Assembly (NCBI GenBank): GCA_035315345.1 | Contig: DATFYA010000085.1 | Coordinates: 2,288 to 66,287, forward strand | DNA: 64,000 nucleotides | Source: Candidatus Methylomirabilota bacterium | Lineage (GTDB): Bacteria; Methylomirabilota; Methylomirabilia; Rokubacteriales; CSP1-6 | Direction of reading: 5' to 3' | Shown here: piece by piece, positions 20,070 through 29,544 of the stretch | Layout: each line of letters begins with the position of its first letter | How positions within the stretch are numbered: position 1 is the stretch's first letter | Made by a program: the position numbers and the translations under genes | The notes under the pieces: model-generated | What the model saw: the letters and a program-made list of their open reading frames with translations, nothing else | What the model was told of the DNA's origin: nothing | The model's database searches: none

Positions 20070-23000
20070 ATGAGTGTGATGGATCGCCGGTCGTTCTTCA
20101 AGATCGTCGCCACCACCGGCGCCGCGGCGGCGACGGGCGGCTGCGGACCATCGGCAGGAACGCTCCTCCCCTACGTCGTCCCTCCCGACAACATCGTCCC
20201 CGGCGTACCGGCATATTTCTCGACGGTGTGCCGCGAGTGCCCAGCCGGATGCGGCCTCATCGCCAAGAACCGCGACGGCCGCGTGATCAAGCTCGAGGGC
20301 AACCCGGATCATCCGGTGAACACCGGCGCGCTCTGCATCCGCGGTCACGCTGGACTGCAGGCGCTCTACCATCCCGATCGGTTCCGCGGCGCGCTGGCGA
20401 AGGGCCAGCCGGTCGCCTGGGACGACGCCGAGAAGCAGGTGGCCGACAAGATCGCCGCCCTCGCCGGCGGCAAGCAGGGCGGGCGCATCGCGATCGTGAG
20501 CGGGCTCGAGACGGGAAGCCTCGGCCGGCTGATGGACGAGTGGGTGCGGCTGGTGGGCGCGCGTCCGCGTATCTCGTACGAGCCGCTCGCCTACGAGGCG
20601 GTGCGGGCGGCGAACCGCATCACGTTCGGACGGGACGCGATACCGGAGTACGCGATCGGCGAGGCTGCGTACCTGGTGTCCTTCGGCGCCGACTTCCTGG
20701 AGACGTGGCTGTCGCCGGTCGCCTACACCGCCGACTTCTCGCGCATGCACGCGTTCTACCAGGGGCGCACCGGCACCTTCGTGCACGTCGAGCCCCGGGC
20801 GTCGATGACCGCTGCCAACGCGGACGAATGGGTGCGGAACGCGCCGGGCACCGAGGGGCTGCTCGCCCTCGCCATGCTCAAGGTCGTCGTGGACGAAGGG
20901 CTCGCGACGGGCGGCGGCGATCCGAACACGCTGCGCTCGGCGACCCGCTCGGCGGACGTGGACGCGGCCGCGTCGGCCTCCGGCGTGCCCGCCGACACGA
21001 TCCGACGGGTCGCGCGGGACCTGGCGCGCTCGAAGGCGGGCCTCGTCGTCGGTGGCGGGATGGCCGGCGCCGGCTCCAGCAGCACGGACACGCTGGTCGC
21101 GATCAACCTGCTCAACGTGGCGATCGGGGCGGTGGGCCCCCGCGTCCGCTTCGGCTCGGCCTCGGCCTTCGGGCGCGCGAATCCCTATTCCGACATGGTG
21201 GCGCTGACCCAGGCGATGGCGGGCGGGCAGATCGACGTGCTGGTGCTGGTCGACGTCAACCCGGTGTATGCGATGCCTGCGAAGTCGGGCTTCGCCGACG
21301 CGCTCGGCAAGGTGCCGCTGGTCGTGGCCCTCGCGAGCCGATCGAGCGAGACGACGGCGCGCGCCGCGGTGGTGCTGCCGACCCTGCATCCGCTCGAGTC
21401 GTGGGGCGACTATTCGCCGCAGGAGGGCGTGCTCGGGCTCCTGCAGCCCGCGATGGGGCCGGTGCTGATCGAGGGCAAGCCGGTCCAGGCGAAGAACCCC
21501 GGCGACATCCTCTTGAGCGTGGGCCGTCAAGCCCTGCGGCTCGAGGAGGGCAAGGGCCCGCTGCCCTGGCCGACCTTCCGCGATTTCCTCACGGAAGAGT
21601 GGCAGAAGATGGCGCGGGCCCAGGGCAGCGCCGAGCCGTTCCCGGCCTATTGGGAGGCGGCGCTCCGGCGGGGTGGAGTGTGGCGGAACGTCCCGCCGAG
21701 CCCGATGAGCTTGCGGCCGGAGGCCGGTCGGGTTTCGGCCGCGCCCGCGCGGCTGGACGGCAACGGCTCCCACGTGCTCCTCGTGTATCCGTCGAGCCGC
21801 TTCTACGACGGCCGTGGCGCGGACCGGGCATGGCTGCAGGAAGCGCCGGACCCGATGACCCAGGTGAGCTGGGACGCCTGGGTCGAGGTGCCAACCGAGA
21901 CGGCGACCCGGATGGGGATCCGGCGCGGCGACCTGCTCACCCTGACCTCGCCGAACGGCGCGATCGAGCTGCCCGCCTATCCGACCGATCTCGTGCACCC
22001 CGGGGCGGTGGCGGTGCCCATGGGACAGGGGCGCAAGCTGTCGGGTGCCTATGCGGCCGGGACGCCGTCGACGGCGGCCAGCAACCCGCAGCCCAGCACG
22101 TTCCTGAACGTGGGAGCGAATCCCGTCGATCTCCTCGGGTCGACGCCCGATCCCGCGTCGGGTGGTCCCATCTACCTCGGCGTGAAGGTGTCGCTGGCGC
22201 AGACCGGAGGGCGGCGCGCCCTCGCGGTGCCGCAGGCCACGTTCGATCAGGACGAGCGCGAGCTCGCGCAGTACGTGGGCCTCACCGCCGCCCGCGAGCT
22301 GGACCTGCGCGGACGGGCCCCGGCCGACGCCAGTCATCCGAGCATGTATCCGCCGATGAAGTACGCCGAGTACAAGTGGGGCATGACGGTGGACGTGGAC
22401 CGCTGCACCGGCTGCTCGGCGTGCGTGGTCGCCTGTCAGAGCGAGAACAACGTCCCGGTGGTGGGACGCGAGCAGGCGGCCTACGGGCGCATCCAGCACT
22501 GGCTGCGGCTGGAGCGCTGGCAGGAGGGCACCGCCGCGCAGCCGCTCAACATGTTCATGCCGATGTTCTGCCAGCACTGCGAGGTGGCGCCGTGCGAGCC
22601 GGTGTGCCCGGTCTACGCGGCCTACCACACCCGGGAGGGCCTGAACGGGCAGGTCTACAACCGGTGCGTGGGCACGCGGTACTGCGGCAACGCGTGCCCG
22701 TACCACGTCCGGCGCTTCAACTGGTTCAACTACACGTGGCCGGCCCCGCTCGACCAGCAGCTGAATCCGGACGTGACGGTGCGCGAGGCCGGTGTGATGG
22801 AGAAGTGCACGATGTGCCTGCAGCGCATCGTGGCCGCCAAGGCGCAGGCGCGCGATGACGGGCGGGCGGTGCGCGACGGCGACATGCAGACCGCCTGTCA
22901 GCAGACGTGCCCGACCCGCGCGATCACCTTCGGCAACCTGAAGGACGCCAACGCGGAGAGCGCCAAGCTGGCGCGGTCGCCCCGCGGCTACCACGTGCTC

Positions 23001-23096
23001 GGGGAGATCGGGACCCAGCCCAGCGTGACCTATCTCAAGAAGGTCGTGCGCACCGAGCCCGCCGGCGGCCACAAGGCCCCCGGAGGCCACGCGTGA
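20070..23096 (+). CDS. actB: alternative-complex-III-like subunit ActB (Tat-exported molybdopterin-oxidoreductase-like domain fused to a 4x[4Fe-4S] ferredoxin domain)
   Basis: GGAGGAG RBS. Twin-arginine signal MDRRSFFKIVATTGAAAA. N-terminal half molybdopterin-oxidoreductase-like. C-terminal half has CxxCxxCxxxC clusters (CTGCSACVVACQSE…, CQHCEVAPCEPVCP…, CVGTRYCGNACP…). About 1008 aa. Confidence 0.7.
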   Translation: MSVMDRRSFFKIVATTGAAAATGGCGPSAGTLLPYVVPPDNIVPGVPAYFSTVCRECPAGCGLIAKNRDGRVIKLEGNPDHPVNTGALCIRGHAGLQALYHPDRFRGALAKGQPVAWDDAEKQVADKIAALAGGKQGGRIAIVSGLETGSLGRLMDEWVRLVGARPRISYEPLAYEAVRAANRITFGRDAIPEYAIGEAAYLVSFGADFLETWLSPVAYTADFSRMHAFYQGRTGTFVHVEPRASMTAANADEWVRNAPGTEGLLALAMLKVVVDEGLATGGGDPNTLRSATRSADVDAAASASGVPADTIRRVARDLARSKAGLVVGGGMAGAGSSSTDTLVAINLLNVAIGAVGPRVRFGSASAFGRANPYSDMVALTQAMAGGQIDVLVLVDVNPVYAMPAKSGFADALGKVPLVVALASRSSETTARAAVVLPTLHPLESWGDYSPQEGVLGLLQPAMGPVLIEGKPVQAKNPGDILLSVGRQALRLEEGKGPLPWPTFRDFLTEEWQKMARAQGSAEPFPAYWEAALRRGGVWRNVPPSPMSLRPEAGRVSAAPARLDGNGSHVLLVYPSSRFYDGRGADRAWLQEAPDPMTQVSWDAWVEVPTETATRMGIRRGDLLTLTSPNGAIELPAYPTDLVHPGAVAVPMGQGRKLSGAYAAGTPSTAASNPQPSTFLNVGANPVDLLGSTPDPASGGPIYLGVKVSLAQTGGRRALAVPQATFDQDERELAQYVGLTAARELDLRGRAPADASHPSMYPPMKYAEYKWGMTVDVDRCTGCSACVVACQSENNVPVVGREQAAYGRIQHWLRLERWQEGTAAQPLNMFMPMFCQHCEVAPCEPVCPVYAAYHTREGLNGQVYNRCVGTRYCGNACPYHVRRFNWFNYTWPAPLDQQLNPDVTVREAGVMEKCTMCLQRIVAAKAQARDDGRAVRDGDMQTACQQTCPTRAITFGNLKDANAESAKLARSPRGYHVLGEIGTQPSVTYLKKVVRTEPAGGHKAPGGHA

Positions 23097-24445
23097 GCGC
23101 TCCTCCGGCCGGCGCCGCGCAGCCCACGTGGGCCGACGTCAACCACGATGTCGACCGGACGCTGCTGACCGCGGGTAACACCTACTTCGCGTGGATGACG
23201 CTCATCGCGCTCATCCTCGCCGCCGGCGTGGCCGCGTGGGCCTGGCAGATCTGGGTCGGCTTGGGCGCGGCCGGTATCCGGACGCCGCAGATGTGGGCGC
23301 TCTACATCACCAACTTCGTGTTCTGGATCGGTATCGGCCACGCGGGCACGCTGATCTCCGCCATCCTGTATCTCTTCCGGGCGAAGTGGCGCACCTCGAT
23401 CTACCGGGGCGCGGAGGCCATGACCGTCTTCGCGGTCATGACCGCGGGGCTGTTTCCGCTGATCCACGTCGGGCGCATGTGGTTCGCCTACTGGCTCATG
23501 CCCTATCCGAACCAGCGCTACCTCTGGCCGAACTTCAAGTCGCCCCTCATCTGGGACGTGTTCGCGATCTCGACCTATCTGACCATCAGCGTGGTCTTCT
23601 TCATCGTGGGCCTCGTGCCGGACATCGCGGCGATCCGCGACCGGTCCACCGGGCTCAAGCGGAAGGTCTTCGCGGTCTGCGCGCTCGGCTGGGAGGGGAG
23701 CGACTGGCAGTGGCGGCACTACCGTCGCGCCTACGGACTGCTCGCCGCGCTGGCGACCCCCCTCGTGCTCTCCGTGCACAGCGTGGTGTCGTTCGACTTC
23801 GCGATGGCCCTGATCCCCGGCTGGCACTCGAGCCTGTTCGCCCCGTTCTTCGTGGACGGAGCCATCTTCTCGGGCTTCGCCATGGTGCTGATCCTCATCA
23901 TCCCCATGCGCGCCGTGTTCGGCTGGCACGCCTACATCACCGACCGGCATCTGGACGCGATGGCCAAGCTGACCCTGGTCACCAGCCTGGTGCTGACCTA
24001 CTTCTATCTCTGCGAGTCGGGCACCGCGTGGTACAGCGGCGAGGTGTACGAGCGGGCGTCGCTCTTCGCGCGGGCCTTCAAGGCCTACACGTTCACCTTC
24101 TGGCTGCAGTACATCTGCAACTCGCTGATCCCCCTCGTGCTCTTCTGGCGGAAGGCGCGGACCAACCTGGTGATCCTGTACGTGGTGTCGATCTTCGTCC
24201 TCATCGGCATGTGGCTCGAGCGATTCAACATCATCGTCCCCGGTCTGGGCTATGACTTCTATCCGTACACGTGGGGCGTGTACCTGCCGCGCGTCGTGGA
24301 CACCACGATCACGGTGGCCTCCTTCGCGTGGTTCTTCCTGCTGTTCCTGGGCTTCATCCGCGTGATGCCGTCGCTGTCGATCGTGGAGGTCAAGGAAGTC
24401 TTGCCCCATCCGCTCAAGCACGGCGCCCATGGAGGCCATCACTGA
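23093..24445 (+). CDS. actC: NrfD/PsrC-family polytopic membrane subunit (ActC-like quinol-interacting subunit)
   Basis: GTGA overlap with actB. About 10 predicted TM helices, NrfD-like. Confidence 0.7.
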   Translation: MSAPPAGAAQPTWADVNHDVDRTLLTAGNTYFAWMTLIALILAAGVAAWAWQIWVGLGAAGIRTPQMWALYITNFVFWIGIGHAGTLISAILYLFRAKWRTSIYRGAEAMTVFAVMTAGLFPLIHVGRMWFAYWLMPYPNQRYLWPNFKSPLIWDVFAISTYLTISVVFFIVGLVPDIAAIRDRSTGLKRKVFAVCALGWEGSDWQWRHYRRAYGLLAALATPLVLSVHSVVSFDFAMALIPGWHSSLFAPFFVDGAIFSGFAMVLILIIPMRAVFGWHAYITDRHLDAMAKLTLVTSLVLTYFYLCESGTAWYSGEVYERASLFARAFKAYTFTFWLQYICNSLIPLVLFWRKARTNLVILYVVSIFVLIGMWLERFNIIVPGLGYDFYPYTWGVYLPRVVDTTITVASFAWFFLLFLGFIRVMPSLSIVEVKEVLPHPLKHGAHGGHH

Positions 24446-24953
24446 GATGGCGACCGCCAACGTGCTCGGGGTGTTCGCGCACGTCGACACCACGCTCCAG
24501 GCCATCCGGGACCTGCGGGCCAAGGGCTTCGGGGACCTGACCGTCTACACCCCGGTTCCGGTGGAGGAGATCGAGGAGGAGGTGGAGAGTGTCCGCCCCG
24601 TGTCCTCGGTCCGGCTCTTCACGCTGGTCGGCGGCCTCACCGGCACCGCGACCGGCTTCTTCCTGACGATCTGGACCTCGCTGAAGTGGGAGCTGCTCAC
24701 CGGCGGGAAGGCGGTCGTGTCCATCCCGCCCTTCATCATCATCGCCTTCGAGCTGACCATCCTCCTGGGCGGGCTGGCCAGCGCCCTCGCCATCCTGGTC
24801 CTGGGACGCCTGCCGAAGCTGCGGCCGTCGGCCACCTACGATCCGCGCTTCACCCTGGATCGCTTCGGGGTCGCGGTGGCGTGCCCGGCCGACAAGGTGG
24901 ACTCGGTGAGCTCGGTGCTGTCCGGCGCGGGCGCGGAAGAGGTCCGGCGATGA
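24429..24953 (+). CDS. actD: ActD-like small membrane subunit (DUF3341 family)
   Basis: 174 aa, two TM helices, N-terminal …ANVLGVFAHVDTTLQAIRDLRAKGF… resembles DUF3341. Position fits ActD. Confidence 0.55.
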   Translation: MEAITEMATANVLGVFAHVDTTLQAIRDLRAKGFGDLTVYTPVPVEEIEEEVESVRPVSSVRLFTLVGGLTGTATGFFLTIWTSLKWELLTGGKAVVSIPPFIIIAFELTILLGGLASALAILVLGRLPKLRPSATYDPRFTLDRFGVAVACPADKVDSVSSVLSGAGAEEVRR

Positions 24954-25456
24954 TGAAGTGGGTGTTCGTGCTGTCGCTGCTGGTGGTGGGGGCCTTCGGC
25001 GGCTGGCTCGCGCTGAACGTGGTGCACTGGTGGCAGACCGACATGTTCCACACGCAGCGGGTGATGCCCGGCGAGGCGGCCTACTCGATGCCGACCGGCA
25101 GCCTTCCGCGCAACGGCGGCCAGATGTACTACTCGCCGGCGGATCGTGATGCCGCCGCGGCCCGGCGCAATCCGATCGCGGCCACCACCCAGTCGGTGAG
25201 CCGCGGCGGAGAGCTCTTCGCGATCTACTGCACGCCGTGCCACGGGGCCAGCGGCAAGGGTGACGGCCCCGTGTCCACGAAGTTCGTCCCGCCGGCCGAC
25301 CTCACGAACCCGGAGCTGCAGAAGGTCCGCACCGATGGGTACTGGGAGAGCTACCTGAGCGTCGGCGGCGCGGTCATGCCCTCGTACGGCGAGGCCCTGA
25401 CGCCCGACGAGCGGTGGGCGATCGTGAACTACGTGCGAACGCTGGCCAAGAAATGA
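24950..25456 (+). CDS. actE: monohaem c-type cytochrome (ActE-like)
   Basis: Signal/anchor then a single CTPCH haem-binding motif with downstream Met. ATGATGA overlap with actD. Confidence 0.65.
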   Translation: MMKWVFVLSLLVVGAFGGWLALNVVHWWQTDMFHTQRVMPGEAAYSMPTGSLPRNGGQMYYSPADRDAAAARRNPIAATTQSVSRGGELFAIYCTPCHGASGKGDGPVSTKFVPPADLTNPELQKVRTDGYWESYLSVGGAVMPSYGEALTPDERWAIVNYVRTLAKK

Positions 25457-26598
25457 GCGCGAACACGACCGTGTCGGCCGCTCCGGTCCCGCGCGTGCCC
25501 CAGCCGCTGCTGGTCCTGCTGGCCGCCCTCGGGATCGTCGCCTTCCTCTACGGCATCACCCAGGGCCAGCCGCTCCGGACCTGGATGATCTACCTGATCA
25601 ACCTGCTGTTCTGGTCGAGCCTGGCCATCACCGGGCCCGCCATCGCCGGCATGATCCAGGTGACGGAGGGGCGCTGGTCGCCCACCATCAAGCGGATCGC
25701 GCTGACGACCGCCGGCTTCCTGCCGGTGTCGTTCGTGCTCTTCCTCGTGCTGTTCGCGGGGCGGGCGGTCCTGTACCCGTGGGTGAGCCATCCGCTGCCC
25801 AACAAGGCGGCCTGGCTGAACGTGCCGTTCATGTCGCTGCGCATCGGCATCGGCGTGCTGCTGCTGTACTGGGTGGCCATGCGCTACACCAAGGCGGTGT
25901 TCGCGGCCGACCAGGCCGGCATCCCGGCCGAGGTGGGCAACGACCGGCTGATGCGGCTCAGCACCATCATGCTGATCCTGTACGTGGTGGTGCTGTCGCT
26001 CTGGGGCTTCGACCTCATCATGTCGCTCGATCCCATCTGGTACAGCGGCCTGCTCGGCGGCTACTACGTGGTGAGCTCGATGTACACCGGCTTCGGCCTC
26101 GTGACCTACCTCACGCTGCGCTACAACCAGGCGGGCGTGACCGCGGTCGCCCCGAAGGCCATCCAGGACGTCACCAAGCTCACGTTCGCGCTGAGCATCG
26201 TGTGGATGTACTTCTTCTTCTCGCAGTACCTGATCATCTGGTACGGCAACGTGCCGAACGAGACCCGCTTCTTCGTGCTGGGCTTCCTGCAGCAGCCGTG
26301 GGGGCGCCTGGCCTGGGCCATCTTCATCGTCGGCTGGCTGATCCCGTTCTCGTATCTGCTCAAGCGCCTCACCGGGCGGCCTCCCACGCGGCACAAGGTC
26401 CTCACCGTGATCCTCTGGATGGGCTGGATCGCGATCTTCTTCGAGCGGGTGCTCGTCGTCTCGGTGTCCCTCAAGCAGACCGCGATCCCGCACGGCATCA
26501 TCGAGGTCCTGGTCACGCTCGGCTTCTTCGCGCTGTTCATGCTGAGCCGCACCTGGTTCCTCGCTCGCTACAAGCCGGTCCTGAACCTGTCCCGGTAG
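25453..26598 (+). CDS. actF: polytopic membrane subunit (ActF-like, NrfD-related)
   Basis: ATGA overlap with actE. About 10 TM helices. Final gene of the cluster. Confidence 0.55.
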   Translation: MSANTTVSAAPVPRVPQPLLVLLAALGIVAFLYGITQGQPLRTWMIYLINLLFWSSLAITGPAIAGMIQVTEGRWSPTIKRIALTTAGFLPVSFVLFLVLFAGRAVLYPWVSHPLPNKAAWLNVPFMSLRIGIGVLLLYWVAMRYTKAVFAADQAGIPAEVGNDRLMRLSTIMLILYVVVLSLWGFDLIMSLDPIWYSGLLGGYYVVSSMYTGFGLVTYLTLRYNQAGVTAVAPKAIQDVTKLTFALSIVWMYFFFSQYLIIWYGNVPNETRFFVLGFLQQPWGRLAWAIFIVGWLIPFSYLLKRLTGRPPTRHKVLTVILWMGWIAIFFERVLVVSVSLKQTAIPHGIIEVLVTLGFFALFMLSRTWFLARYKPVLNLSR

Positions 26599-26640: not shown

Positions 26641-27867
26641 GTGATCTCCGTCGAAGAGGCCCTCGACCGCATTCTCTCCCGCGTGGCGCCGCTGGGCGAC
26701 GAGCGCGTCGCGCTCCCCCAGAGCCTCCACCGCGTGCTCGCCGAGGACATCGACAGTCCGCGCGACATGCCGCCCTGGCCGGCCTCCTCGATGGACGGCT
26801 ACGCGCTTCGCAGCGACGACACCGGCGCGGCCGCCGCCAGGTCTCCCGCCCGCCTGGCGGTGGCCGGGCGCGTGCCGGCGGGCGCCATGGCCGAGCGCCC
26901 GCTCCGGGCCGGCGAGGCCTTCCGGATCTTCACGGGGGCGCCGCTACCCGAGGGCGCGGACTCGGTGATCCCCCAGGAGGACGTCACCGAGGAGGGCGGC
27001 GCGCTGCTGGTGCCCCGCCCCGTGAGCGCCGGCGACTTCGTGCGCCCGCGCGGTGAGGACATGACGCGGGGCGATCGGGTCCTCGAGCGGGGGCGCGTGC
27101 TCAGCGCCGCCGACATCGGCCTGCTCGCCACCGTCGGGCGGGCGCGGGTGAGCGTGATCCGTCGGCCGCGCGTCGGGATCCTGTCCACCGGCGACGAGCT
27201 GGTGGATCTGGGCGGGCGCATCGGTCCCGGTCAGATCCCGAACTCCAACAGCTACTCGCTCGTGGCCCAGGTGCTCGAGGCCTTTGCCGAGCCGGTGAGC
27301 CTCGGCATCGCGGGGGATCGCCTGGAGGATATCGAGGGTCGGCTGCGCTGGGGGCTCGGGTGCGATCTGGTGATGTCCTCCGCCGGCGTCTCGGTCGGCG
27401 AGCACGACTTCGTGAAGGACGCGCTGGCCCGTCTCGGCGCCGAGCAGCATCTCTGGCTGGTGGACATGCGTCCCGGAAAGCCGATCGCGTTCTCCACGAT
27501 CCCGCAGGACGGCAAGGCCGCGCTGGCCCTCTTCGCGCTGCCGGGCAACCCGGTCTCCGCCATGGTGACCTTCGAGCTGTTCGTGCGCCCCGCCCTCCTC
27601 CGCATGGCCGGGCACTCGCGCCTGCAGCGGCCGACCATCACCGCGCACGCGCTCGCCGCGATCAAGAACGGCGACAGCCGCCGCGGCTATCTGCGCGTGA
27701 CCCTCACGCCCGACGGCGACGGCTATGGCGCGCGCCTCACCGGCACGCAGAGCTCGGGCGTCCTCCGCTCGATGGTCGCCGCCGACGGCCTCGCCGTCGT
27801 CCCCGGCCGCACGACGATAGAGCCGGGCCAGCCCGTGAAGGTGATCGTCCTCCGGCAAGGCCTGTAG
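26641..27867 (+). CDS. moeA: molybdopterin molybdenumtransferase
   Basis: …SVEEALDRILSRV…PWPASSMDGYAL… and the GGTG-like motif (…STGDELV…). 408 aa. GTG start. Confidence 0.9.
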   Translation: MISVEEALDRILSRVAPLGDERVALPQSLHRVLAEDIDSPRDMPPWPASSMDGYALRSDDTGAAAARSPARLAVAGRVPAGAMAERPLRAGEAFRIFTGAPLPEGADSVIPQEDVTEEGGALLVPRPVSAGDFVRPRGEDMTRGDRVLERGRVLSAADIGLLATVGRARVSVIRRPRVGILSTGDELVDLGGRIGPGQIPNSNSYSLVAQVLEAFAEPVSLGIAGDRLEDIEGRLRWGLGCDLVMSSAGVSVGEHDFVKDALARLGAEQHLWLVDMRPGKPIAFSTIPQDGKAALALFALPGNPVSAMVTFELFVRPALLRMAGHSRLQRPTITAHALAAIKNGDSRRGYLRVTLTPDGDGYGARLTGTQSSGVLRSMVAADGLAVVPGRTTIEPGQPVKVIVLRQGL

Positions 27868-27900
27868 CACCTCAGCGCGCGGAGCGGGAGGGGCCGGCGG

Positions 27901-28032
27901 CGGGGCGGGGTGGTGGCTCGCGGACCACGAGGCGCGATCTCGTCTCGACGGGGTAGCAGTTCCCATTCTGGGAGGCGAGGCTCCTGGCGATCGTTGGCAG
28001 GAACGGGTCCGTCGAGCCACCACCCCGCCCCG
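27901..28032 (+). mobile_element. MITE-like palindromic element, copy 1 (132 bp; 20-bp perfect terminal inverted repeats CGGGGCGGGGTGGTGGCTCG / CGAGCCACCACCCCGCCCCG)
   Basis: Terminal inverted repeats, subterminal CGGACC/GGTCCG and an internal hairpin TCCCATTCTGGGA, all read directly. No ORF of its own. Confidence 0.6.
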
Positions 28033-28065
28033 CCGCCGGCCCCTCCCGTTCGCCCTTGGGCGGCG

Positions 28066-28135
28066 TCAGGATTTGCGGAGGAACATCCACCAGAGTGTGA
28101 GGCAGGCGCCGGCGCACATCGATTCGAAGGTCAGG
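28066..28135 (-). repeat. duplicated copy (about 90% identity) of the 3' end of yeeE/yedE (last about 23 codons plus stop)
   Basis: 28066-28135 matches 28457-28530 (…AGGCTCCTGACCTTCGAATCGATGTGCGCCGGCGCCTGCCTCACACTCTGGTGGATGTTCCTCCGCAAATCCTGA on the minus strand). It encodes …LLTFESMCAGACLTLWWMFLRKS*. Confidence 0.7.
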
Positions 28136-28148
28136 AGCCTGCCGGCGG

Positions 28149-28228
28149 TGGGGCGGGGAGTGGCTCGCGGACCACGAGGCGCGATCTCGCCTCGACGGGG
28201 GTAGCAGTTCCCATTCTTGGAGGCGAGG
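28149..28228 (+). mobile_element. MITE-like element, copy 2 (left half only, about 80 bp)
   Basis: GGGGCGGGGAGTGGCTCGCGGACCACGAGGCGCGATCTCGCCTCGACGGGGGTAGCAGTTCCCATTCTTGGAGGCGAGG equals the left arm of copy 1. It ends abruptly at the duplicated moeA tail. Confidence 0.55.
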
Positions 28229-28257
28229 TGATCGTCCTCCGGCAGGGTCTGTAACAC
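28229..28257 (+). repeat. duplicated copy of the last 9 codons plus stop of moeA
   Basis: TGATCGTCCTCCGGCAGGGTCTGTAACAC versus moeA 27842-27870 TGATCGTCCTCCGGCAAGGCCTGTAGCAC. Confidence 0.7.
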
Positions 28258-28286
28258 TCCAGCGGGAAGGGCGGGAGGCGGGGCCG

Positions 28287-28419
28287 CGGGGCGGGGTGGT
28301 GGCTCGACGGACCCGTTCCTGCCAGCGATCGCCAGGAACCTCGCCTTCCAGATTGGGAACTGCTACCCGCGAGGAGACGAGATCGCGCCTCGTGGTCCGC
28401 GAGCCACCACCCCGCCCCG
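28287..28419 (-). mobile_element. MITE-like element, copy 3 (133 bp, inverted relative to copy 1, about 90% identity)
   Basis: Same 20-bp terminal inverted repeats. The interior is the reverse complement of copy 1 with a few substitutions. Confidence 0.6.
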
Positions 28420-28456
28420 CGGCCCCGCCTCCCGCCCGTTCTCGCCGGCCGTGCGC

Positions 28457-29467
28457 TCAGGGCTTGCGGAGGAACATCCACCAGAGGGTGAGGCAGGCGC
28501 CCGCGCACATGGAGGCGAAGGTCAGGAGGCTGCCGACGGCGAGCGTCGCGGAGTTGGTGAGGCCCTGGTTGATGTTGCAGCCCTCGGCGACGAGCGCGGC
28601 CGCCCCCATGAGGAGTCCGCCGCCGAAGATCTTCGCGAGACTCGAGGCGGGGGGCCACTTCCAGGCGAACGTGCCGGTGGTCCAGGCCGCGATGAACGCG
28701 CCGACGGGCACGCCGAGGGCCATCAGCATGCTCCAGGTCACGCGGTTCGGGTAGCCGACCATCGGGTAGGTGAGGAGGTGGCCGGTGTTGGCTGCGAACG
28801 TGATGCCCACCGGGTGATCGCCGAGCGCAGATGCCCACCAGCCGACCACGATCATCACGCCCACCGCGGCGCCGGTGGCCGGCCACCGCCACGTGCCGTG
28901 CTCGGGCTCGCGGCGCCCGCGACGGAGCCAGATCGCGCCCAGCACGAGCAGCCCGGCGATCACGATCCACGGGGAGACGCCGGTGACGCCGGGCAGCGTG
29001 ACCGCGCCGCCGTCTCCCAACGAGATGACCGGTCTCTGCAGCATCGTGCGGATCGGCGCGAGGACGCCGATACCCGCGGTGGTGGCGCCGATCGCGAAGC
29101 CCACGAGGACGACCAGTGCGCCGGCCGCGCCCTCGCCGATCCGGTACCAGGCGCTGCCCGGGCAATCGCCCGCCAGGATCATTCCGACCCCGAACAGCGC
29201 GCCGCCCACGATGTTGGAGACCCACCGCAGGGGCCGTAGCGGGATCTCGACCAGCCCGAGCGCCTCGATGATCTGAACGCCGACCATCGCCACCAGCGCG
29301 GCGAGGACATAGGCGCGCAGGATGTTGCCGTCGCGCATGAGGACGGCGTTGGAGAGGGCGCGAGTCAGGCAGAACCCGCCGCGCTGGGTGACATAGCCGA
29401 AGACGAGGCCGACGGACAGCGCCGAGACGAACAGCATCCAGGACAGGTCGTCCATCGCGCCGCTCAT
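28457..29467 (-). CDS. YeeE/YedE-family (DUF395) sulfur-compound transporter, TsuA-like
   Basis: Two-repeat polytopic protein with the conserved Cys motifs (…RGGFCLTR… and …AEGCNINQG…). Start among several in-frame Met (29494, 29467, 29455). Confidence 0.8.
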   Translation of the reverse strand: MSGAMDDLSWMLFVSALSVGLVFGYVTQRGGFCLTRALSNAVLMRDGNILRAYVLAALVAMVGVQIIEALGLVEIPLRPLRWVSNIVGGALFGVGMILAGDCPGSAWYRIGEGAAGALVVLVGFAIGATTAGIGVLAPIRTMLQRPVISLGDGGAVTLPGVTGVSPWIVIAGLLVLGAIWLRRGRREPEHGTWRWPATGAAVGVMIVVGWWASALGDHPVGITFAANTGHLLTYPMVGYPNRVTWSMLMALGVPVGAFIAAWTTGTFAWKWPPASSLAKIFGGGLLMGAAALVAEGCNINQGLTNSATLAVGSLLTFASMCAGACLTLWWMFLRKP

Positions 29468-29544
29468 GCTAACGGAACCGCAAACGGCAGTCAAAGTCTC
29501 GTGAAAATTGACTTTTCGAGAAGCGAGGTGGTACGGTCTGGGCC

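Follow-up and report, generated by a model that had tools for sequence, protein, structure and literature searches.

What occupies the spacer between the convergent genes moeA and yeeE in the window, that is, in the whole stretch of 64,000 nucleotides of DNA from a soil bacterium of the Candidatus Methylomirabilota analysed here, and how did it come to be there? The spacer comprises 589 nt (positions 27868-28456) between the stop codons of moeA, on the forward strand, and yeeE, on the reverse strand. An earlier note, made from the letters of the window alone, had described it as nested copies of an element resembling a miniature inverted-repeat transposable element (MITE), interleaved with duplicated ends of both flanking genes. 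Our analysis identified the repeated unit as a long inverted repeat fixed at this locus and normally present as a single copy in one Methylomirabilota clade, the members of which share YeeE proteins at least about 80% identical; this conclusion is well supported and we hold it with high confidence. As to its history, the arms of this locus-fixed repeat were probably homogenised, and its core flipped, by template switching or arm-to-arm recombination, with a tandem duplication of 387 nt having taken place in the lineage of the window. Our confidence in this evolutionary mechanism is moderate, as it was drawn from comparative patterns together with published mechanisms.

The repeats of the spacer and their positions were reproduced by a repeat finder (Table 1). 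As originally described, there are two full copies of the element, A and C, with cores in opposite orientation (93-94% identity as reverse complements), and a half-length third copy, B, between the two blocks; the outer gene ends are real and the inner ones decayed, the moeA pseudo-end having TAA in place of TAG. The ORFs called across the element are spurious, also as described, being products of translating through it. The dimensions had to be corrected. The terminal inverted repeats, read at first as 20 bp, are arms of 36-39 nt, and the unit consequently measures about 170 nt rather than 133; what had been taken for a C-rich spacer of about 40 bp is mostly the outer portion of the right arm; the blocks, estimated at about 300 bp, recur with a direct-repeat period of 387-391 nt; and the internal copy of the yeeE end comprises 27 codons plus the stop, instead of about 23 codons, its translation terminating ...LTFESMCAGACLTLWWMFLRKS. 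Half copy B was matched by nhmmer at profile positions 16-106 (E 9e-18) and bears the CCCATTCT signature, otherwise present only in element A and in the related locus L012. Chance is excluded as the origin of these repeats, since the 20-mer CGGGGCGGGGTGGTGGCTCG of the arm occurs 4 times in the 64-kb window against 0.13 expected, and a 28-mer of the core was found 3 times with 0.00 expected. The next-best inverted repeats nearby reach at most 31 nt with 71-89% complementarity, and nothing comparable is found elsewhere in the window.

The orthologous spacers of relatives, sampled from about 10 lineages, set this arrangement in context. One element was found in each of the spacers of L010 (YeeE 97% identical to that of the window; spacer of 206 nt), L012 (89%; 197 nt), L018 (89%; 203 nt), L015 (87%; 198 nt), L026 (84%; 205 nt), L028 (82%; 204 nt) and L042 (81%; 193 nt). 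The P0018 group (L032 and others; YeeE 80%) has a truncated spacer of 84 nt containing only the right arm and 14 nt of core, a remnant homologous to the element (nhmmer E about 1e-6), and the 55-nt spacer of L044 (YeeE 73%) consists of unrelated sequence. A scan of genome contigs with one YeeE protein returned one locus, L018. Across the clade the element has a stem of about 44 bp, usually with 36-41 bp perfect, and a core of 92-96 nt; all fetched relatives keep the genes for moeA, yeeE, the TPR protein, dprA and topA in this order. Since the spacers of close relatives measure about 200 nt and contain one element each, the window holds exactly one extra block (589 - 202 = 387 nt), and the alternative that the earlier note had offered, that of a local tandem duplication or of recombination between alleles, is the one borne out.

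The arms of the element provided the evidence on how the repeat is maintained. They are 100% complementary over 35-41 nt in element C and in L012, L018, L028 and L042, and differ by 1-3 mismatches in element A, L029, L015 and L026, and by an indel in L010. The arm sequences themselves vary between lineages, those of L042 being almost unrecognisable. In a nine-sequence alignment of the long helix of 44 pairs, 22 pairs were changed on both sides and only 1 on one side, 14 being invariant; 96.7% of the cells were paired, against 41-55% when the partner was slid by 1-3 columns, and none of 500 shuffles reached the observed values. Many of the swaps are from GC to CG or from GC to UA and cannot, for that reason, have gone through a wobble intermediate; wobble states were seen only in the outermost pairs.

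We propose that the two arms copy each other, either through template switching during replication or through intramolecular arm-to-arm recombination with gene conversion, so that a change in one arm would be mirrored in the other, and that the same arm-to-arm process would flip the core. Both routes would be expected to leave the same footprint in the sequence. The ability of the repeat to fold into a hairpin or cruciform would also make the site a hotspot at which DNA is deleted, duplicated, inserted or replaced. Template switching between the arms of inverted repeats homogenises the arms and reversibly inverts the spacer between them (PMC8604942), and through it perfect stems arise and persist, with compensatory changes of several bases and inversions of the loop (PMC8794818). 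Quasipalindrome hotspots have been described in E. coli (PMC7202029), and the hairpin inversions of the plastid trnH-psbA spacer are a natural parallel (PMC2903610).

In neighbour-joining trees of both moeA and yeeE, the orientation of the core was opposite in every sister pair: L012 (A orientation) and L018 (C), L026 (A) and L028 (C), L032 (A, remnant) and L042 (C), and the window (A plus C) and L010 (C). The flanks and outer arms fall into two haplotype classes, class I being that of element A, L012 and L015, all in A orientation, and class II that of element C, L010, L018 and L028, all in C orientation. Inversion of the segment between the arms, with the arms kept, was found on comparing L026 with L028, L032 with L042, and A with C. 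L026 requires a true flip, because class II-like flanks accompany an A-oriented core, and the L032/L042 pair requires one as well. The difference between L012 and L018 is of another kind. These loci are 94.8% identical overall, and their flanks and outer arms are only about 64-70% identical, compared directly or as reverse complement. Inversion of the whole spacer was considered for this pair and rejected, the two flank comparisons being equally poor (0.64-0.69), and the difference is better described as a replacement of the allele class than as a simple inversion. No disagreement on orientation was found among assemblies of one population (L010/L011; L015/L016/L021; L028-L030; window/L001/L002), which implies, as far as consensus sequences show, that flipping proceeds on an evolutionary timescale rather than as rapid phase variation.

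Concerning the tandem arrangement of the window, its genes are 98% identical to those of L010 (96% at 4-fold sites), and block 2, made up of the moeA pseudo-end, its flank and element C, closely resembles the single spacer of L010; the pseudo-end and the real moeA end of L010 both have TAA, and the 45 nt past the stop are nearly identical. The extra 387 nt correspond to block 1 plus B, with an element of class I whose core is closest to that of L012. Microhomology was present at both junctions. At J1 the yeeE pseudo-end ...GAGCCTGCCGGCGG is joined to TGGGGCGGGG..., and GCCGGCGG is common with the left flank of A (27893-27900); at J2 the end of B, ...GGCGAGG, is joined to TGATCGTCC..., and AGG is common with the stretch ...GTGAAGG of moeA that is followed by TGATCG. 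The simplest mechanical description of these junctions is a pair of backward template jumps producing a tandem duplication with a 79-nt templated insertion. Copying would have passed from the real moeA end across element A to a point 83 nt inside yeeE, jumped back at the 8-nt microhomology to the left arm of A, from which 79 nt (B) were copied, and jumped back a second time, at AGG, to a point 29 nt before the moeA stop, going on from there through the second element into the real yeeE.

This history of the duplication is in part a reconstruction. A duplication in situ predicts similar blocks, and the blocks are not similar, the full copies belonging to two diverged classes that each occur singly in relatives. 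This implies either an old duplication with diverged copies or the arrival of one block from another lineage; an old duplication with reciprocal loss, an import of block 1 from a class I lineage, or later remodelling would each be consistent with it. In addition, 4 of the 14 single-nucleotide polymorphisms (SNPs) between the window and L001, a second assembly of the same layout, lie in the 761-nt rearranged region, at 27855, 28090, 28190 and 28523 (binomial p = 0.012). At position 27855 the real moeA end of the window has CGG, as in the pseudo-copy, and L001 has CGC, as in all relatives. Exchange or gene conversion between the copies may, to judge from these positions, be continuing. No recombination tract of raised identity was evident in the coding DNA flanking the element.

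Other spacers at this site differ in further ways. In L033 (2500-3975; also in L037 and L041) the gene of an IS110-family transposase (PF01548/PF02371, 408 aa) lies within the remnant, directly after GGGTCGGGTGACCC, and L032 and L034-L036, which encode the same YeeE protein as this group, are without the IS110 insertion; the IS110 element is an insertion into the remnant and not a partner of the hairpin element. In P0023 an identical YeeE is found beside a 193-nt spacer with the element (L042, 2500-2692) or beside a 47-nt spacer (JGI 3300043331), a difference of 146 nt, unequal to the 166-nt element, a comparison made from coordinates only. In P0009 contigs (JGI 3300056388 and 3300043331), again from coordinates only, a called gene of 31 aa with a weak MoeA_C match stands between yeeE and a full moeA, these two genes lying about 525 nt apart; it probably represents a second, independent tandem duplication with a different junction and a moeA fragment longer than 29 nt. 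In L048 (2501-2585; YeeE 87%) an unrelated perfect palindrome of 84 nt, lower in GC content, stands in place of the entire spacer. Its arms measure 27 nt or more (GGGGTCAGGTCTTGAATTGCGACATTT; -57 kcal/mol, z -9.7), and it overlaps both stop codons and alters both C-termini, MoeA ending ...ILLR and YeeE ...LRKGVRS. No other copy of this palindrome was found in the fetched loci or in the window, and its arm was unmatched in viral contigs.

With respect to function, the core of element C is 96% identical to that of L018, while the 4-fold sites of the flanking genes are 71% identical; the figures are 92% and 64% for element C against L028, and 97% and 70% for element A against L012. The cores of the window are 59-60% identical to that of L042, where the 4-fold sites stand at 59%. 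In a sliding comparison the conservation of the element about equals that of the neighbouring coding DNA, and both core and arms appear to be constrained within the clade. The GC-rich hairpin begins 14 nt past the moeA stop and 19 nt past the yeeE stop. This position, together with its extreme and strand-symmetric stability, led us to our likeliest guess at a role, offered with low confidence: the element might act as a shared 3' hairpin of both convergent transcripts, as a terminator lacking a U-tract, a 3'-end protector or an RNase III site. No U-tract follows the stem, the flanks being C/G-rich, and a scan for the terminator consensus had no site at the element. The spacers of element-less relatives hold no stable hairpin (z +0.4 and +0.9), which implies that the hairpin is dispensable. 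A small protein encoded in the core was rejected, because one-nucleotide indels between lineages break every frame.

Several points weigh against the account given here, in which a locus-fixed repeat is homogenised and flipped by arm-to-arm copying. The mechanism, be it template switching, RecA-type recombination or a dedicated enzyme, was inferred from sequence, and the lineages compared are about 10. Selection for an RNA hairpin on both strands would also require Watson-Crick arms, so that the covariation of the stem is not in itself proof of a process at the DNA level. Simple flipping is insufficient, since the difference between L012 and L018 calls for lateral exchange or for classes, allelic or paralogous, of deep origin. 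A core that is coding-like in conservation within the clade, yet has diverged in L042 as far as 4-fold sites, is not what a purely mutational model would predict. The case for a terminator is weak, with no U-tract at the stem and no stable hairpin in element-less relatives. Finally, the negative result on non-syntenic copies covers the window, the related loci, the metagenome scan and the viral contigs, complete genomes not having been scanned with the DNA profile.

Among the other explanations for the element itself, the one proposed in the earlier note has a small non-autonomous MITE, mobilised in trans, inserting here and driving the local duplication. The size of the unit (about 170 nt) and the long terminal inverted repeats on a short non-coding segment (arms 36-41 nt, core 92-96 nt) would suit such an element, as would its polymorphic presence beside an identical YeeE (193-nt versus 47-nt spacers), the other palindrome at the same site in L048 and the breaking of many short-read contigs at the arm. 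However, no copy beyond A, B and C was detected in the window, either by a 3-mismatch search or by an nhmmer profile with filters off, nor did the element profile detect one outside the moeA-yeeE spacer in 48 related loci (260 kb). A scan of a metagenome collection with the conserved core 19-mer ACCACGAGGCGCGATCTCG gave 7 loci, of which two were true copies, both beside moeA/yeeE; the other five were rejected as chance matches sharing nothing but the 19-mer. Viral contigs scanned for the core yielded no match, and six-frame core peptides had none among 5.8 billion predicted proteins, a weak negative given that gene callers seldom call ORFs there. Target-site duplications are absent, the flanks of A (GCGCGCG / GCCCTTG) and those of C (GCGGGAA / GTTCTCG) sharing no direct repeat. 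Clean empty sites were not seen either, the apparently empty spacers of 84 nt being ragged deletions that retain the right arm and 14 nt of core. Synteny of the element is kept in lineages with YeeE identity as low as about 80%; its arm sequences vary from lineage to lineage yet remain self-complementary, the opposite of conserved transposase-binding ends; and contig breaks are expected wherever k=31 meets a 38-nt inverted repeat. The IS110 transposase of L033 had no tblastn match in the window, which was not systematically screened for transposases. That the element is not a transposable MITE is well supported, and the MITE account is highly improbable; the earlier note had itself held that a lack of copies elsewhere would argue for a local duplication over a mobile family, and on present data this is where the searches point. 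A programmed invertible switch, in which a recombinase encoded elsewhere would flip the 92-nt core and so shift a module between the 3' untranslated regions (UTRs) of moeA and yeeE or redirect an internal promoter, would explain why both orientations recur among close relatives and occur together in this strain, and why long perfect inverted repeats surround a conserved core. We regard it as very unlikely, as no recombinase gene was found within about 5 kb, a region that contains a cluster resembling alternative complex III (ACIII), moeA, yeeE, the TPR protein gene, dprA and topA; no sigma-70-type promoter was found in the core by a scan that does not cover other promoter types; the arms covary, unlike a conserved recombinase site; orientation does not vary among independent assemblies of one population; and 92 bp is very short for synapsis by known invertases. 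To the same slight degree we credit an orientation-switchable 3'-UTR module, in which inversion would shift a core enclosed by self-homogenising arms between the moeA and yeeE transcripts. Coding-like conservation of the core, an orientation that differs in each sister pair, and the intactness of A and C while B and the pseudo-ends decay are compatible with it. If it were true, one core sequence, for example in the role of a processing site or a site of RNA binding, would influence the synthesis of molybdenum cofactor in one state and the uptake of sulfur in the other, and the tandem of A and C would be a way to hold both states at once. As for a structured non-coding RNA gene, a small RNA relying on the long stem and the conserved core, the suggestion of a structured RNA made in the earlier note stands for the stem, which covaries strongly, and fails for the core, in whose predicted inner helices there were 0 compensatory changes. 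In favour of such a gene are also the extremely stable fold of the whole element on both strands (-147 kcal/mol, z -10.7, on the plus strand; -137 kcal/mol, z -11.3, on the minus strand) and the conservation of the core above the 4-fold-site level. On the other hand, the core alone folds like shuffled sequence (z -0.5 and -1.0), no promoter was found, either orientation works or is tolerated, the element has been lost in some lineages, and Rfam 15 gave no match at the gathering score; its best match, mir-657 (26.3 bits versus 69; E 0.03), was rejected as chance. An RNA gene of this kind is quite improbable.

The tandem arrangement invites explanations of its own. An assembly artefact, or a chimera of two co-occurring strains, would have been invited by the metagenomic origin of the sequence, by its inverted and direct repeats and by the several short contigs that stop in the arm, but it is hardly credible here. 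Nine public contigs encode an identical 408-aa MoeA. Among these related sequences, L001 (ERZ27251189, a contig of 97.7 kb) has the same tandem layout with 99.875% identity over 11.2 kb, and L002 (ERZ27251197) is 100% identical as far as its contig end at about 28410, inside element C; both novel junctions are present in L001 and L002, and the agreement of three assemblies, at 99.9-100% identity, implies that the tandem is not an artefact. Moreover, the repeated blocks are only 76-94% alike, leaving a k=141 assembler without a long exact repeat to mis-join, and the J1 and J2 sequences occur in no single-copy allele. The independent k=31 (Logan) contigs L003, L005, L006 and L007, with identical MoeA, all end 47 nt past the moeA stop, at about 27914 in the left arm, as expected where a 38-nt inverted repeat exceeds k. 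In L019 (1-142) the contig ends inside the element, and its far arm, GGGTCCGCGAGCC, is without the T bulge of all other copies, a difference that may be an artefact of fold-back where the contig stops. The class structure of the tandem blocks could go back to ancient tandem paralogues with reciprocal loss through the duplicated gene ends, which would yield much of the orientation and haplotype pattern. Flanks and arms indeed fall into two classes tracking orientation, L012 and L018 are of different classes in spite of their high overall identity, the core of A is 97% identical to that of L012 and the core of C 96% identical to those of L010 and L018, deletion between the moeA copies or between those of yeeE is predicted to leave precisely the class II and class I flanks seen in single-copy loci, and the P0009 lineage also looks tandem. 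Nevertheless, the pseudo-ends are only 10-11% diverged, less than would be expected of neutral DNA so old; in P0009, the 31-aa fragment matched by Pfam implies a junction other than the 29-nt one; L026 and L032/L042 still require true inversions; and a single tandem locus is known at the DNA level. Ancient paralogy is, on balance, unlikely. Slightly less likely still is an imported allele, in which block 1 and B came from an L012-like lineage through recombination anchored in moeA, followed by an illegitimate join to the native L010-like allele. It would account for genes 98% identical to L010 beside a core of A that is 97% identical to L012, where 4-fold sites are only 70% identical, and it is in keeping with the microhomology at the junctions and with the presence of dprA, a natural transformation gene, two genes away. 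But the yeeE pseudo-end is particularly close to no sampled lineage (about 88-92%), the real and pseudo moeA ends share the window-specific CGG codon (polymorphic in L001), pointing to a joint history or to conversion in place, B requires an additional step, and no recombination tract is evident in the flanking coding DNA.

Among neighbouring features, the region upstream of moeA (window 21641-26598; L001 1-4958) contains the ACIII-like cluster, with genes for a molybdopterin/Fe4S4 oxidoreductase, NrfD, ActD, a cytochrome c and a Pfam-less membrane protein of 381-394 aa, and this cluster is syntenic across the clade. On the downstream side are a TPR/YfiO-like lipoprotein, dprA and topA. The YeeE homologues carry the names YeeE/YedE in metagenome-assembled genomes of Methylomirabilota / Rokuibacteriota. 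The last 20 nt or so of moeA (27846-27867) and of yeeE (28457-28478) are mutually inverted (TCCTCCGGCAAGGCCTGTAG and TCCTCCGCAAGCCCTGA, coding strands), the match scoring 12 against a null maximum of 8 and against 1-9 in relatives; the similarity may come simply from both proteins ending in LR[QK]xx.

Table 1. Features of the moeA-yeeE spacer and its borders (window coordinates; a point marks features without a strand).
Feature	Position	Strand	Support and remarks
moeA, molybdopterin molybdotransferase	26641..27867	+	Pfam MoeA_N, MoCF_biosynth, MoeA_C
Real moeA 3' end, last 29 nt; genuine copy of the duplicated end	27839-27867	+	Direct repeat D2
Element A, left arm	27882-27920	.	Inverted-repeat pair I5: 39 nt, 97% complementary to 28013-28051; 36 nt perfect
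Element A core, 92 nt; 'A' orientation, haplotype class I	27921-28012	+	97% identity to L012 core
Element A, right arm	28013-28051	.	Inverted-repeat pair I5
yeeE pseudo-end, last 27 codons and stop	28066-28148	-	Direct repeat D1: 83 nt, 89% identity to 28457-28539
Junction J1, yeeE pseudo-end to B	28141-28149	.	Microhomology GCCGGCGG; three-way comparison with real yeeE and left side of A
Half copy B: degraded left arm and left core half; orientation and type as A	28150-28228	+	Direct repeats D3 and D4: 90% and 97% identity to A
moeA pseudo-end, last 9 codons and stop (TAA for TAG), 29 nt	28226-28254	+	Direct repeat D2
Junction J2	28226-28228	.	AGG microhomology; junction comparison
Element C, left arm	28269-28306	.	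Inverted-repeat pair I4: 38 nt, 100% complementary to 28400-28437
Element C core, 93 nt; haplotype class II	28307-28399	-	Inverted repeats I1 and I3: reverse complement of A core, 93-94%; 96% identity to L010 and L018 cores
Element C, right arm	28400-28437	.	Inverted-repeat pair I4
yeeE/yedE-family sulfur transporter	28457..29494	-	Longest ORF; gene callers' start 29455; Pfam Sulf_transp, E 4e-63

If our reading is correct, the locus would be an unusually clear natural bacterial case of an inverted repeat evolving in concert, with arms and spacer far longer than those documented: one arm would be corrected against the other, as reflected in 22 mirrored pair changes with almost no intermediates, the interior would flip repeatedly, and one structure would seed deletion, duplication, insertion of an insertion sequence and replacement at a single syntenic site. 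Two cautions follow for the interpretation of similar loci, namely that strong 'covariation' of a stem need not signify a selected RNA structure and that long terminal repeats are no proof that a palindromic unit is mobile. For annotation, the element accounts for spurious ORFs and for contig breaks at this locus in metagenomes of Methylomirabilota. It would constitute no new class of system unless the core proves to be orientation-dependent in function.

Compared with known systems, the element shares with invertons a segment bounded by inverted repeats and found in both orientations; unlike them, it has no invertase nearby and no promoter in the segment, its arms covary, and no mixed orientation was seen in the consensus assemblies. 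In the manner of bidirectional intrinsic terminators, it is one GC-rich, symmetric hairpin located 14-19 nt past both stops that folds equally well on both strands, but its stem of about 44 bp, its conserved interior of 92 nt, its lack of A/U tracts and its absence from some relatives set it apart. The dispersed Correia/CREE, ERIC/IRU and REP/BIME repeats are likewise palindromic, non-coding units of 100-170 nt in transcribed 3' intergenic DNA of convergent genes, able to form an RNA hairpin; those families, however, count tens to hundreds of dispersed copies with conserved ends and often with target-site duplications, whereas this element was found at one locus, without target-site duplication and with arms that vary among lineages. 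Integron attC sites, retron msr/msd, the dif site and CRISPR repeats were considered and rejected, given the conserved synteny, the lack of an adjacent integrase or reverse transcriptase and the fact that the element does not form an array.

Complex tandem duplications with templated insertions are attributed to replication-based events of the fork stalling and template switching/microhomology-mediated break-induced replication (FoSTeS/MMBIR) type, mainly in eukaryotic copy-number variants. The duplication in the window resembles them in its two back-jumps at microhomologies of 3-8 nt and in the 79-nt templated piece, B, between the blocks, and differs in that it spans only 387 nt, involves a bacterial palindrome and has unexpectedly diverged blocks. 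In the small inversions of plastid genomes, a loop between inverted repeats in 3' intergenic DNA also flips repeatedly, with an orientation that is homoplasious even within species; those inversions belong to an organelle genome, have shorter stems and loops, and have not been described with a tandem duplication of gene ends. With respect to the quasipalindromes formed by template switching, these have been documented mostly with arms of about 5-20 bp and spacers of a few bases, in contrast to the 36-41 bp and 92-96 nt of this element, which is known from its footprint only and which persists through clade-level divergence at one bacterial site. The likeness to them lies in a process that would need neither a dedicated enzyme nor any function encoded by the element, in the perfect arms brought about by clustered two-sided changes, and in the recurrent and reversible inversion of the spacer.

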